A DNA stretch of 64,000 nucleotides, from the IMG/VR virus record IMGVR_UViG_3300043607_000009, positions 441 through 64,440 of that record; one strand, 5' to 3'. Of the stretch, positions 1,257 through 5,662 are shown in pieces (position 1 is the stretch's first letter; every line of letters begins with the position of its first letter). The stretch is from a virus. The translations under genes and the position numbers were made by a program. The notes below the pieces were generated by a model. It saw only the letters and a program-made list of their open reading frames with translations, ran no database searches and was not told the origin of the DNA.

Positions 1257-1513
1257 GCACGCTACTTACTCGTTTTCGACGAGGCTGGAATACCAGACGC
1301 GCTTTGACGCAATCTGTCCAGAAGAAATCGCGCCGCGGTGGTGGAAACCGGAAGACACACCCCATTTAACCAAGCGTGGGGCGAGGAGTGGGCGACCCCC
1401 TCGAATTGCACGTTCGAATCGTGCACGCGGCACCATTTTTCTAGGAACGATTTACTCGGGAACGGTTTTGCTATAACGTACCCCTCCCATACAAGAACAA
1501 CGGGGAAGGGTTC

Positions 1514-4500
1514 GTGGGGAGCCTCAACCCGCACTGCCAGAAGTGCCCGCTACACGAGACTAGCGACATCGTATGCCTTGCTGGCGAAGGTCGGCGCGGC
1601 GCCGAGGTCATGTTCGTTGGCGAAGCGCCCGGTGCGGAAGAAGAACGCGAAGAGCGACCGTTCGTCGGGCCGTCCGGCCGGCTGCTCCGTGATCAACTCA
1701 AACGCGCCGGCATCAAAGACGTGTTCATCACGAACACGGTCCGTTGCGTCGTGGGATCAACGGCGGTAAGTTTTCCATCGCCCCCCACGGTAGGGTACAA
1801 ACGCTATTACCAGGGCCTTCTCTTGACGATCAAGACGGCCTCGGGCAACGAGCTGGCCGTCACACCGAATCACCCGATACTCACGGCGCGTGGATGGGTT
1901 CGCGCTGAGGAGTTGCGCGGTCGAGATGACTACGTTCACTGCTTCGGGCGTAACTCTGGTACAACGATTCAGCCACAAGTAGACGACCGCCCACTTCTCG
2001 CGGAGCAAGTATTCAGTACGCTTGCGCTTAGAAGCAGCTCGTGCCGGGTTGTTGGTCATCAAATGGATTTCCACGGCGACGGAACCGATCGCGAAGTCGA
2101 GATTGTAAGGGCCGACAGCGCATTGTTCTCGGAACACGACTTTTCTCTTGCGCAGTTCAGAAGCGAACCAACGATCAGTAGCTCCTTGTTTGCCCCTCGT
2201 CTGTTCGGCCGTTATTGCGCTAGTCTGCGCTCGTTTTTTGATCGCCTCAGGGCTCCACAGCCGTCGATTAGCATAGGCAGCTTGGCGCGCTGGCTCCGAG
2301 AGGGCCACACGTTCTTCAGTCGTGAGCTTGCTCCAATATTTTTTCAGAGTGCGCCCTGTATCTGCGACCAAAGCAGCATCATGGTAGCTGCGGGCGTTGT
2401 AGCCGGCAGCCTTCAATCTAGCGGCAACAGTTCCATCACTAACCCCGAGAGCAACGGCGATCTGGCAGAAAGATTCTCCGCGCTTAAAGCGCCCGACCAA
2501 ATCATCGAGATCCAATCGCAGTTTTGGGCGGGCCATGTCTACAACTTCTCAACGCCGGGGGGGTGGTACATCTCGAACGGTATTATAACGCACAACTGCC
2601 GGCCACCGAGCAACCGACAACCGACTGCGACCGAGATCTCCGCGTGTCGTGGCTACCTCGCGGATGAGATCAAGCGTGTCAAGCCCAAGTATGTTGTGGC
2701 GCTTGGCGCAGTAGCCGCGAAGACGCTCTTCGTTGGCAAGTCCAAGGTCACGCAACACCACGGCGCCTTCGTGGAGCCCACTGACAAGCACCCCTACCGC
2801 GGCTACGTCGCTTACCATCCTGCCTTCACGCTGCGCGACCCTAGCAAGTTGCCGGCGTTCACTCAGGATCTAAAGCGATTGGCCCGTGCGGTCCACGGTG
2901 AAGAGCGAGCTCCCGAGGCGCCGTGGTCCCTACTGCGGCGCGGCAACCTGCGGAAGTTTCTGCGCGAGTTCATCGAAGCCCCGGAGTTCTCGTTCGACCT
3001 CGAGACCTCGGGCTACTTCATGCACGGGCCAGGCGGCTACATCAACGCGATGTCGATCGACCTCCCGCACCGCACGTGGGTCGTGCCGTGCATGGACTAC
3101 GATCCAATCAACAAGCGGCACAAGCACACTCCGTGGCGCCGCGGGAACGCCTTCCTCGAGCTCGTGAAGCTGTTGGTCAAGATCCAACGTGAGACTGCAA
3201 AGCGCTGCGTTGGCCACAACGGCAAGTTCGACAACCTCTGGCTCCGCCGTCTGACTGGCTTCTGGTTCAAGCTCACGTTCGACACGATGCTTGCGAGTCA
3301 CACGCTGGACGAGAATCGCGAGCACGATCTCAAAACGCTCGCGCGCACCATCCTCGACGCGCCCGAGTACGACCTCACGCCAAAAGAGAAGAAGGGAATA
3401 GTTGTACCGCGCAAGCTCTACCGCTACGGCGCTTACGACGCCTATTACACGCGCAAGCTCAAGGAGATCTTCTACCGCGAGCTCCAAGACGAACCGGAGC
3501 TCCACCGGCTGTATCACAAGCTGATCATCCGCGTCGCGCGCTCGATGGAGAACCTCGAGATGGTCGGCAAGACCGTGAATCTCGAGAAGTGGGACGCCAC
3601 CACGATCGACGTGCAGTCCGAAGTCATCTTGCTCGAGATCGAGCTCAACAAGATGGTAGGAAAGACCATTAACTGGAATTCGCCGCCGCAGATCGGCCGG
3701 CTCTTGTTCGATGAGCTCGGACTCGAGGTCACGCAGTGGACCGACGGAGGGGCTCCGTCCACGAGCGAAGAAGCGCTCTTCGATCTGCGCGACGAACACC
3801 CCGTCGTGAACAAGCTGCTCGAGTACCGCGAGCGCACCAAGTTCTTGGGCACATACCTGCACGGTCTGCGCGAGTATATGGTGGGGCAAACGCTCTACAT
3901 CCCCTACAAGATCCACGGCACGGTCGGCGGCCGCTACAGTTCGCCAATTCATTCGATTCCACGCGACGGCACCATTCGCAACCTCGTCGAAGCACCGGAC
4001 GGTTGGGATCTCTTCGTGGCCGACATCTCACAGGCGGAGCTCCGCTTCGCTGCACACTTGTCCGGCGATCTCGAGATGCGTCGCTGCTTCAAGAACAATA
4101 TCGACATCCACTGGCGCACGCTCATGTACACGCTCGGCCAAGGCTACATCGGCACCGAAGAGTACGTGGATAACGTGTGGGGCACGGTGAAAGCTCTCGG
4201 CAAGCGTGTCAACTCTATCGGCGATGCGTGCGAGGTCTTGCTGCTCGCCGGCCACGATCGCTGCACCGAGATTTGGAAGGGCTGGAAGGAAGGTCGCTAC
4301 CGCGCCAAGGCGCTGAACTTTGGGTTTTGCATCGCAGAAGGGCAACGTGTACTGACTCACGTTGGTCTAGTACCAATCGAACAAGTGCAGGACTGGCACC
4401 TTGTATGGGATGGCGTAGAGTGGGTATCCCATAAAGGAGTTCAATTTAATGGCTACCAAGAAGTCATCGAATATCAAGGGCTCAAAGCAACCCCAGAACA

Positions 4501-5662
4501 CGAAGTCTGGACGATGGGGGGGCAGAGGCTTCCCCTTTGGAGAGCGGCATCCGAAGGCCATAGACTTGAGAAAACGGGAGCGGGACTTACAGCGTTTCCC
4601 TCTAGGGACACTAGTCGTTTTAGTGGGAACGATTCGTCGCGTCGAGAGATCGCGGTTAGTGATCGACGTTACTTGCACAGCATGCGAGAAACGACAGACG
4701 CTTCTCGTAGACAATTTATGGGCGAAGAAGACAACCAACTGTCGCTGTCAAAGAGCCAAGAAATACTTCGATCCTCGATCCGAAACTCTTGGAATGCGCT
4801 ACGACACCATGATTCAGCGCTGCGAACGCGATACGCACGTTTCATCGAATCGCTACAAAGGGCGCGGAATCCAAGTGCTCTTCAAATCGCGAGAGGAGTT
4901 TATCCGTTGGGCGTTGAAGAAGTACCCCAACAGCGATTTCAAAGAATTGGTTTTCGATCGACGGAACAACGACGGGAATTACTCCAAGGGCAATCTTCGC
5001 CTGACAACCTACAGCGTCAACAATCGAAACAGATTAAGGTCTACGATCTAATCGACGCGGGGCCACGTCACCGTTTCACAGTAGAAGACTGTCTCGTACA
5101 CAACTGCTACGGGATGTTTGAAGACAAGTTCATCGAGCTTGCCAAGACCGACTACGAGTGGGAGCCCTCATGGGACGAAGCGCACTCGATGCGCCAAGGC
5201 TTCTTCGATCTCTACAGCGGACTCCCCAAGTGGCACGACAAAGAGAAGAAGATCGTGCGCAATAACGGCTTCGCACGGATCTTGTCGGGGCGTCGGCGCC
5301 GGCTGCCGGCGATCTACTCCAAGGAGAAGTGGATACGCGCAGAAGCCGAGCGCCAAGCGGTCAACATCCGCGTGCAGGGATTCATCGGCGACTACAAGTC
5401 CATGGCGCTCGTCGAAGCGGACGATCGGCTGAATCCGCACGAAGCGAAGCTCGTCGGCGAACACCACGACGCGCTCCTCGGGATCGTGCGCAAGGACTGC
5501 CACGATGTGGTGCTGCCAGTGGTGCGCCAGATCATGAAGGCCCCCGCGCTGCTCCGCGCGTTCAACATCAAGCTCGACATCCCCATGAATTCGGACATCG
5601 AGCTCGGACGATGGGGCGCAGGCGTCAAATATCAAGACCCAGAACAAAGGAGAGCTGCGTGA
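1514..5662 (+). CDS. polA: Family A DNA polymerase with N-terminal family-4 uracil-DNA glycosylase domain and two inteins (SPO1-like architecture; about 839 aa after splicing)
   Basis: UDG motifs CxxC, GEAPG..E...RPFVGPSG, TNTVR^CRPP; exonuclease motifs FDLETSG, GHNGKFD, YGAYD; polymerase motifs ADISQAELR, KALNFGF^CYG, HHDA. Confidence 0.95.
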   Translation: MGSLNPHCQKCPLHETSDIVCLAGEGRRGAEVMFVGEAPGAEEEREERPFVGPSGRLLRDQLKRAGIKDVFITNTVRCVVGSTAVSFPSPPTVGYKRYYQGLLLTIKTASGNELAVTPNHPILTARGWVRAEELRGRDDYVHCFGRNSGTTIQPQVDDRPLLAEQVFSTLALRSSSCRVVGHQMDFHGDGTDREVEIVRADSALFSEHDFSLAQFRSEPTISSSLFAPRLFGRYCASLRSFFDRLRAPQPSISIGSLARWLREGHTFFSRELAPIFFQSAPCICDQSSIMVAAGVVAGSLQSSGNSSITNPESNGDLAERFSALKAPDQIIEIQSQFWAGHVYNFSTPGGWYISNGIITHNCRPPSNRQPTATEISACRGYLADEIKRVKPKYVVALGAVAAKTLFVGKSKVTQHHGAFVEPTDKHPYRGYVAYHPAFTLRDPSKLPAFTQDLKRLARAVHGEERAPEAPWSLLRRGNLRKFLREFIEAPEFSFDLETSGYFMHGPGGYINAMSIDLPHRTWVVPCMDYDPINKRHKHTPWRRGNAFLELVKLLVKIQRETAKRCVGHNGKFDNLWLRRLTGFWFKLTFDTMLASHTLDENREHDLKTLARTILDAPEYDLTPKEKKGIVVPRKLYRYGAYDAYYTRKLKEIFYRELQDEPELHRLYHKLIIRVARSMENLEMVGKTVNLEKWDATTIDVQSEVILLEIELNKMVGKTINWNSPPQIGRLLFDELGLEVTQWTDGGAPSTSEEALFDLRDEHPVVNKLLEYRERTKFLGTYLHGLREYMVGQTLYIPYKIHGTVGGRYSSPIHSIPRDGTIRNLVEAPDGWDLFVADISQAELRFAAHLSGDLEMRRCFKNNIDIHWRTLMYTLGQGYIGTEEYVDNVWGTVKALGKRVNSIGDACEVLLLAGHDRCTEIWKGWKEGRYRAKALNFGFCIAEGQRVLTHVGLVPIEQVQDWHLVWDGVEWVSHKGVQFNGYQEVIEYQGLKATPEHEVWTMGGQRLPLWRAASEGHRLEKTGAGLTAFPSRDTSRFSGNDSSRREIAVSDRRYLHSMRETTDASRRQFMGEEDNQLSLSKSQEILRSSIRNSWNALRHHDSALRTRYARFIESLQRARNPSALQIARGVYPLGVEEVPQQRFQRIGFRSTEQRRELLQGQSSPDNLQRQQSKQIKVYDLIDAGPRHRFTVEDCLVHNCYGMFEDKFIELAKTDYEWEPSWDEAHSMRQGFFDLYSGLPKWHDKEKKIVRNNGFARILSGRRRRLPAIYSKEKWIRAEAERQAVNIRVQGFIGDYKSMALVEADDRLNPHEAKLVGEHHDALLGIVRKDCHDVVLPVVRQIMKAPALLRAFNIKLDIPMNSDIELGRWGAGVKYQDPEQRRAA
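1757..2536 (-). CDS. HTH + DUF559/Vsr-like endonuclease nested antisense within intein 1
   Basis: 259-aa ORF wholly inside the intein; N-terminal HTH (SFCQIAVALGVSDGTVAARL); EQCAVGPYNLDFAIGSVAVEIH matches the DUF559 core; TATAAT upstream. Confidence 0.8.
   Translation of the reverse strand: MARPKLRLDLDDLVGRFKRGESFCQIAVALGVSDGTVAARLKAAGYNARSYHDAALVADTGRTLKKYWSKLTTEERVALSEPARQAAYANRRLWSPEAIKKRAQTSAITAEQTRGKQGATDRWFASELRKRKVVFREQCAVGPYNLDFAIGSVAVEIHLMTNNPARAASKRKRTEYLLREKWAVVYLWLNRCTRVTPEAVNVVISTAQLLSANPSTRREYRVIRCDGQLVARGRLDRQEKALVIAFVPYRGGRWKTYRR
2582..2587 (-). promoter_or_regulatory. Putative -10 box for the antisense endonuclease
   Basis: Perfect TATAAT on the minus strand 45 nt upstream of ATG 2536; no good -35 at 17 bp spacing. 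Confidence 0.35.
4328..5104 (+). mobile_element. Intein 2 (259 aa) in polymerase motif B
   Basis: Cys1 (CIAEGQRV), block B TPEHEV, block F VYDLIDAG, C-terminal VHN then Cys+1; removal restores KALNFGFCYG. Confidence 0.92.
4449..5051 (+). CDS. HNH homing endonuclease nested in an alternate frame within intein 2
   Basis: 200 aa; CTAC..NCRC, RYDTMIQRC, YKGRGI, FDRRNNDGNYSKGNLR; SD AAGGAG at 4434-4439, 9 nt before ATG. Confidence 0.88.
   Translation: MATKKSSNIKGSKQPQNTKSGRWGGRGFPFGERHPKAIDLRKRERDLQRFPLGTLVVLVGTIRRVERSRLVIDVTCTACEKRQTLLVDNLWAKKTTNCRCQRAKKYFDPRSETLGMRYDTMIQRCERDTHVSSNRYKGRGIQVLFKSREEFIRWALKKYPNSDFKELVFDRRNNDGNYSKGNLRLTTYSVNNRNRLRSTI

Follow-up and report, generated by a model that had tools for sequence, protein, structure and literature searches.

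A putative homing endonuclease gene of Vsr-like fold on the opposite strand of an intein in a soil phage UDG-polymerase gene

Can a single stretch of phage DNA encode a protein-splicing domain on one strand and a nuclease on the other? This question is raised by a locus near the start of the 64,000-nucleotide window analysed here (positions 441 to 64,440 of IMG/VR virus record IMGVR_UViG_3300043607_000009), which covers nearly the whole of a 64,682-nt virus record of soil metagenome origin that is rated 100% complete. A gene in this window encodes the precursor of a UDG, a 3'-5' exonuclease and a family A DNA polymerase (UDG-PolA) and contains two inteins; opposite the first of them, intein 1, runs a long open reading frame (ORF) that a preliminary description of the sequence had taken for a separate nuclease gene. 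Our results demonstrate that the antisense ORF encodes a protein and evolves under purifying selection, and that it belongs to a large family lying antisense in this type of intein at every locus examined. The best explanation of the whole, and in our judgement a probable one, is that intein 1 invaded the conserved ...TVR/CRPP... site of the UDG domain (the slash marks the insertion point), carrying a homing endonuclease as an independent gene on its opposite strand.

The gene opposite intein 1

An open frame of this length could arise by chance in GC-rich DNA, or reflect, as a mirror artefact, the conservation of a sense domain. With the phage's own codon usage, an antisense ORF lacking the three codons that mirror sense stops has a probability of ~0.07 in the window, and the reverse case one of ~0.02. 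The register concerned, in which antisense codon position 1 lies exactly opposite sense position 3 and position 2 opposite position 2, is also the one most often open by chance. Because the two open frames are, in the window alone, merely mildly unlikely, the case beyond chance rests on comparative evidence.

A tblastn search with the ORF as query matched 94 phage records at 24-34% identity over ~90% of its length, including phages of Gordonia, Mycobacterium, Rhodococcus, Pseudomonas, Salmonella, Escherichia, Klebsiella, Vibrio, Haemophilus/Aggregatibacter and Cronobacter. All matches sit under long coding sequences (CDSs) annotated as head morphogenesis, MuF-like minor capsid or intein-containing proteins. 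The ORF is antisense to the overlying CDS in all six phage records inspected; it is annotated in one of them, as a 'hypothetical protein', and unannotated in the other five. In IMG/VR, 221 loci encode a relative, and in each of the 80 loci fetched the ORF lies wholly within a long opposite-strand ORF, in one fixed register. The sense proteins of the homologous loci share the intein pattern C..TPNHP(I/V)LT..GHVYNLQT..HN/C, inserted mostly at the HPN/CRC motif of MuF proteins, with some loci in other genes. A search made with the sense Hint N-terminal segment alone returned 30 loci, one of them cut by a contig end and one carrying a different intein; the remaining 28 all carry the nuclease homologue antisense, which makes 28/28 informative loci found through the splicing domain only. 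An exhaustive phmmer search yielded 1338 cluster representatives with E<=1e-3, of which 553 reach E<=1e-10. A word-indexed protein search gave only three relatives, probably since gene callers usually choose the long sense ORF, and no phage record was matched when the whole gene served as a megablast query.

The direction of selection was read from eight independent close pairs (71-95% DNA identity), in which differences were counted per codon position. Within the nuclease ORF (residues 1-200), 441 substitutions fall on sense position 1, which is antisense position 3, compared with 233 on sense position 3 (antisense position 1) and 154 on position 2. Sense positions 3, 2 and 1 received 97, 25 and 57 substitutions in the Hint N-terminal part and 78, 24 and 30 in the N-extein. 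The substitution excess thus moves from sense position 3 to sense position 1, so the wobble position changes strand inside the intein (Fisher p 4.7e-19 for the switch between zones).

The protein encoded by the antisense gene was modelled from an 84-sequence alignment, giving a predicted local distance difference test score (pLDDT) of 87.5 and a predicted template modelling score of 0.70, with residues 1-239 structured. Residues 115-233 superpose on Escherichia coli Vsr (1cw0_A) with Z 10.8 and a root-mean-square deviation of 2.6 Å over 109 residues; the same domain gives Z 9.9 with 1vsr, Z 9.5 with the catalytic domain of I-Bth0305I (3r3p_A) and Z 8.9 with the DUF559 protein 3hrl. These clear Z-scores came from a structural aligner, Foldseek alone giving marginal E-values for the model (best 1.3e-3). 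In the family alignment, N145, D147 and E156 are invariant and kept in the window copy, and E121, Q138 and Y144 are near-invariant. The conserved E121, D147 and E156 are candidates for residues of the composite EDxHD motif (a Mg-binding Asp, a general-base His and a neighbouring Asp).

Two observations weigh against a straightforward assignment to this nuclease class. The Pfam model DUF559 (PF04480) misses its gathering score (18.7 bits against 20.6, E 1.6e-3), and the general-base histidine of Vsr could not be assigned to a particular residue, H158 being no more than the majority residue in its family column. Since the family profile matches 3hrl at E 1.5e-5 while the Pfam score stays below the cut-off, the antisense protein is a relative of DUF559 rather than a Pfam-defined member. 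The preliminary description had proposed a separate DUF559/Vsr-type gene with a helix-turn-helix (HTH); the Vsr fold, the 3hrl profile match and the family conservation bear this out, and the length, limits and continuity of the ORF, together with the motif quoted for it, are as described.

With these results a chance ORF or mirror artefact is refuted, and we assign it practically no probability: the substitutions follow the antisense frame, the ORF yields a confident Vsr fold, superposition and profile matches while the sense middle has no confident fold, and the ORF is conserved also in AT-richer enterobacterial phages.

Two side observations concern the family. At one locus (L117, IMG/VR 3300034080_000016) tblastn recovers the nuclease homologue as two pieces that abut at query residue 151, and the sense ORF is terminated prematurely; the copy is either decaying or misassembled. 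Among loci L007-L086 the inteins fall into two size classes, of ~267-282 and ~309-336 aa. The phage homologues Vivi2 and Malisha have a second N-terminal copy of the HTH, and such a copy may account for the larger class.

Intein 1 and the extent of dual coding

The 1382-aa precursor matches the Pfam families UDG, 3'-5' exonuclease and DNA_pol_A and, weakly, Intein_splicing. The preliminary description needs one correction: of this UDG/PolA fusion, it is the UDG domain that carries the intein and not the polymerase domain. Intein 1 begins with Cys1 (TGC, 1745-1747) after TNTVR and ends with Asn (AAC, 2594-2596), followed by Cys+1 (TGC, 2597-2599) in CRPP. The signature residues of a class 1 intein are present in the precursor (C78, T117-P-N-H120, H360-N361 and C362), and the intein alignment (A3) shows no variation at H43 and little at C1 and N284 (>=90% conserved). 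The Hint fold is recovered from the N- and C-terminal segments in the model of intein 1, for which the top 47 of the 50 Foldseek matches listed are inteins or Hint-domain proteins, the RadA, GyrA, RecA and DnaB inteins with probability 1.00. The complete set of splicing blocks reported before is present at the stated coordinates.

The centre of intein 1 had been characterized as S/R/F-rich and devoid of a nuclease motif, and we likewise find it skewed and without a confident predicted fold: serine makes up 15%, phenylalanine 7.6% and lysine 0.5%, against 5.6%, 3.2% and 5.3% in the other genes of the phage, and pLDDT is below 50 at intein residues 126-158, 166-176 and 187-230. Nevertheless this centre is kept free of stops. 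In the nuclease ORFs of 32 unique inteins, 123.6 of the codons that mirror sense stops (TTA, CTA, TCA) are expected from local codon usage and none is observed (ln P = -135). The sense frame is therefore held open, which argues for a contiguous intein and not a split one. The intact motifs, in a UDG-PolA that is presumably essential, suggest that this contiguous class 1 intein is competent for splicing.

A split intein would have a known model in the 'fractured genes' of Dassa et al. 2009 (PMC2677866), in which a free-standing Vsr-like or GIY-YIG endonuclease gene lies between the two intein halves. There, as here, a separate Vsr-like endonuclease gene occurs in an intein-bearing phage replication or repair gene, and the endonuclease brings its own expression signals, with short coding overlaps in some cases. 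The window differs in that its precursor is a single continuous frame, with the nuclease gene fully overlapped on the other strand. A fractured gene is rejected and appears exceedingly improbable, as the sense frame is continuous here and in 80/80 loci and stays open where ~124 stop-mirroring codons were expected, although no start signal of a separate C-terminal half was searched for.

The two coding functions are distributed unevenly along the overlap. Both strands encode folded domains at ~1838-2050: the antisense segment EYRVIRC mirrors TPNHPILT of block B, and because its strands (residues 219-234) belong to the Vsr superposition, the same DNA contributes to both folds. At ~2051-2482 the sense frame is merely kept open, and the conserved sense segments 'DFHGDG' and 'EVEIVRAD' mirror, codon for codon, VAVEIH and GPYNLD of the nuclease. 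From 2483 to 2536 the sense Hint C-terminal part overlaps the first residues of the antisense protein. The ~780 nt of dual coding proposed in the preliminary description are consequently real as an overlap, but constraint in both frames applies to only a part of them. The coordinates of all features are given in Table 1.

Table 1. Features of the UDG-PolA locus and of intein 1 (window coordinates)
Feature	Position	Strand	Basis or remarks
UDG (family-4 type) / 3'-5' exonuclease / family A DNA polymerase precursor	1514..5662	+	1382 aa, two inteins; ORF list, Pfam/PHROG
Intein 1, class 1	1745..2596	+	284 aa; Cys1, TPNH (block B), GHVYNF (block F), ITHN (block G), Cys+1
Hint N-terminal part, blocks A and B and following strands	1745..2050	+	intein residues 1 to ~102; pLDDT 91-97 (residues 1-60), 83-89 (81-100)
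Sense read-through linker, S/R/F-rich, stop-free, without confident fold	2051..2482	+	pLDDT, composition
Hint C-terminal part, blocks F and G	2483..2596	+	intein residues 247-284; pLDDT 94-97 (251-284)
Antisense gene, HTH and Vsr-like (EDxHD/DUF559-type) putative homing endonuclease	1757..2536	-	259 aa, uninterrupted; stop 1759-1757
N-terminal helix-turn-helix DNA-binding domain	2402..2530	-	residues 3-45; weak Pfam HTH_38/HTH_23, resolvase HTH Z ~6, profile match 2lvs
Vsr-like nuclease domain	1838..2194	-	residues 115-233; superpositions, profile, conserved columns
Antisense start codon ATG	2534..2536	-	reverse complement of block F His codon CAT
Weak Shine-Dalgarno-like GAGAAG	2545..2550	-	mirror of block F, with Phe instead of Leu in the window
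Perfect TATAAT, -10-like	2582..2587	-	51 nt before antisense ATG; block G Ile-Ile codons ATT ATA
Candidate homing site	N-extein half 1727..1744 (ITNTVR); C-extein half 2597..2614 (CRPPSN)	+	halves directly adjacent in an X3 contig and in 14 related polymerases

Signals opposite the splicing motifs

In this family the start of the antisense gene lies opposite splicing residues. A first MAFFT alignment misplaced many N-termini, owing to the presence of one or two HTHs, and the starts were relocated from the sense block F motif. A start codon then stands opposite the block F histidine in 67 of 76 loci (ATG 55, GTG 9, TTG 3). A Shine-Dalgarno-like (SD-like) sequence is present in 64 of the 76, with the family consensus TGGAGGT located 7-8 nt upstream of the start and mirroring Asn-Leu-Gln of block F. 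In 27 of 36 inteins a constant 20 codons separate the start from the terminal Asn, and in 34 of the 36 the ORF ends within the intein; the element therefore carries the nuclease gene and, as it seems, the putative signals of that gene inside its own borders.

A perfect TATAAT occurs within 90 nt upstream of the start in 26 of 61 unique cassettes, where ~0.7 would be expected. In 17 of the 61 it is placed at exactly -51, and 12 of these 17 read TGnTATAAT. At the block G position, 17 of 21 Ile-Ile pairs are encoded by ATT ATA. These data suggest that the last 20 codons of the intein family, blocks F and G, could form a complete antisense expression cassette, which would make the intein a self-contained two-strand mobile element. 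In such a cassette, ATT ATA would be read on the other strand as TATAAT, often extended to TGnTATAAT by the preceding Thr/Ala codon (an extended -10, needing no -35), the Leu-Gln codons CTC CAR as GGAG, and the His codon CAT as ATG.

Several observations count against this proposal. In the window copy the SD, GAGAAG, is weaker than the family consensus and the TATAAT lacks the TG extension; a simple sigma-70 scan of 1400-3000 found no full promoter, the -10 element having come to light only through the comparison of cassettes, and the phage was found in no RNA run. TATAAT was not found in the actinophage members of the family, so the promoter reading fails for the family as a whole. Taking both sides together, we consider the odds that the cassette is real to be about even. 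Just past the antisense stop, the minus strand has an 8-bp hairpin (1738-1720, GTGTTC..GAACAC) with a weak T-run, within the codons for 'VFITNTV' of the UDG. Terminator-like sites number 2, against 1.5 expected, and the hairpin may be a chance palindrome.

In the mechanism that we propose for the invading intein with its opposite-strand gene, the host RNA polymerase would transcribe the antisense gene from the -10 built into the block G codons, and translation, uncoupled from the polymerase mRNA, would start from a ribosome-binding site and an ATG that the block F codons contain. The preliminary description had suggested that such expression could be timed separately and would produce antisense RNA against the polymerase gene. 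A true cassette would mean that the host RNA polymerase expresses the nuclease independently of the invaded gene, and that the codon choice of the splicing motifs, and in part even their residues, is fixed by signals of the other strand.

The same transcript could have another main role, the control of UDG-PolA by antisense RNA or by the HTH protein rather than homing. Its overlap with the polymerase mRNA would span ~800 nt, and an HTH is present in the protein. Such a role seems to us very improbable, however, as the same module is found in unrelated genes (MuF, terminase-like, UDG), which fits a selfish mobile unit, and the active-site columns of the nuclease are invariant.

Homing site, precedents and a second intein

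The sequence TNTVR/CRPP had been put forward as the target of the nuclease. It is a natural candidate, and an intein-less allele does exist: in run X3, an independent soil metagenome, a 221-nt contig joins position 1743 directly to 2596 and skips 852 nt, the exact length of the intein. The one-base offset of this junction fits a synonymous CGC for CGT at Arg77. Related UDG-PolA genes in IMG/VR (31-69% identity) are intein-less in 14/14 cases and read through ...V(R/K)/CRPP.... The nearest relative of the nuclease (42% identity by phmmer) is located in a MuF gene, and TGCCG at the start of the C-extein is common to the MuF sites and the UDG site. This suggests an extein switch, perhaps from MuF to UDG. 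Against an invasion of the UDG site stands the fact that presence and absence at exact boundaries fit precise loss as well. As a separate observation, one related UDG-PolA (L097, IMG/VR 3300011445_000192) contains ~125 additional residues after the matched part, and motif B was not recognised in it; an intein or insert may be present at a different site.

During a mixed infection, the antisense protein would bind the intein-less allele through its HTH region and cut near the TVR/CRPP junction, and recombinational repair would then copy the whole intein with the nuclease gene into the cut allele, while protein splicing would keep UDG-PolA functional. Alternatively, this copy could be a spent passenger late in the homing cycle, with a real antisense gene but an intein that is fixed and vertically inherited and a nuclease that is weakly expressed or no longer homing. 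The weakened SD and unextended -10 of the window copy are in line with this, as is the fact that among the 14 polymerases no close relative with this intein in UDG was found; most VSR-like cases, moreover, are reported to look vertically inherited (bioRxiv 10.1101/2025.01.02.630785). We nevertheless regard it as rather unlikely, since all 259 codons of the ORF are uninterrupted and none of the invariant residues is lost, and since ongoing homing requires an intein-less allele, such as the one that co-exists in soil.

The second intein of the same gene (intein 2, 4328-5104) is inserted in polymerase motif B (KALNFGF/C...LVHN/CYG) and also contains an ORF outside the intein frame. This ORF (4449-5051, plus strand, +1 frame) follows AAAGGAG and encodes a 200-aa HNH-type endonuclease (PHROG 374, E 8.5e-20). 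Compared with the closest relative, L091, substitutions at sense positions 1/2/3 number 3/1/17 in the Hint N-terminal part, 93/41/37 across the ORF and 3/2/12 after it; as they gather at sense position 1 across the ORF, the shifted frame is under selection there. In Salmonella phage S532 and Caulobacter phage GB2A, too, the homologous ORF does not share the frame of the annotated polymerase CDS (offsets 2 and 1, respectively), and in all three ORFs the expected first His of the HNH motif is replaced by Arg (DR[IR][DN]xDGNY). In three other metagenomes, contigs covering window positions 4327-5127 are near-identical to intein 2 (0 differences in X3, 1-2 in X5 and X6), while the polymerase exteins on either side diverge by ~3-8% and contig breaks coincide with the border of the intein. 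Near-identical intein 2 copies within diverged exteins are a sequence signature of recent horizontal spread.

Homing endonucleases of the EDxHD, or Vsr-like, type are established, with I-Bth0305I as prototype (Taylor et al. 2011, PMC3239194; see also Dassa et al. 2009). The prototype resembles the window nuclease in combining an N-terminal HTH/NUMOD-type region with a C-terminal Vsr-like catalytic domain inside a self-splicing element of a phage gene. It differs in being encoded in an RNA loop of a group I intron, without overlap with protein-coding sequence, and shares 12-16% identity with the window nuclease.

Closer precedents exist on the antisense side. Inteins with an anti-sense endonuclease of the LAGLIDADG type were described earlier (Gorbalenya 1998; Gogarten et al. 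2002, both cited by bioRxiv 10.1101/2025.01.02.630785); there too the homing endonuclease is encoded on the opposite strand, but its nuclease fold is another. Anti-sense VSR-like endonucleases in full inteins of actinobacteriophages are the subject of that same preprint (Gosselin, Arsenault, Gogarten), so the suggestion that the layout may be undescribed does not stand. There, as in the window, a full intein carries on its opposite strand a Vsr-like nuclease following helical DNA-binding repeats, and the sense middle has no recognisable fold; the match to Vsr 1CW0 is given there as Z 10.6, close to the Z 10.8 found here, and several of the Gordonia phages concerned are among our tblastn matches. 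The window shares with those inteins a complete Vsr-like ORF opposite a contiguous intein, between the splicing blocks, and its ORF additionally overlaps blocks B and F. The host genes listed in the preprint are those of DNA polymerase (Pol III alpha), minor capsid, terminase and thymidylate synthase, as compared with the UDG of UDG-PolA in an uncultured soil phage. The terms 'glycosylase', 'promoter' and 'start codon' do not occur in its text, and the passages considered contain neither a codon-position test nor phages of Gram-negative hosts. Relative to the preprint, the UDG insertion site, the empty allele seen directly and the family-wide support for embedded signals are new.

Our findings indicate that the layout is genuine, widespread and already described, and that the window adds to it a well-supported case from a new host gene, by which the UDG site joins the known intein targets. 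The locus is a clean natural example of long sense/antisense dual coding, in which ~70 codons serve parts of two folded domains and putative control signals of one gene are written within the catalytic motifs of the other. The family reaches beyond actinophages to phages of Salmonella, Escherichia, Pseudomonas, Vibrio and Haemophilus, and annotation pipelines miss such genes, hidden as they are beneath a longer ORF. Compact HTH-Vsr nucleases of this kind could supply new sequence-specific enzymes, and the arrangement lends support to a 'splicing first' view, in which free-standing endonuclease genes are acquired by inteins.

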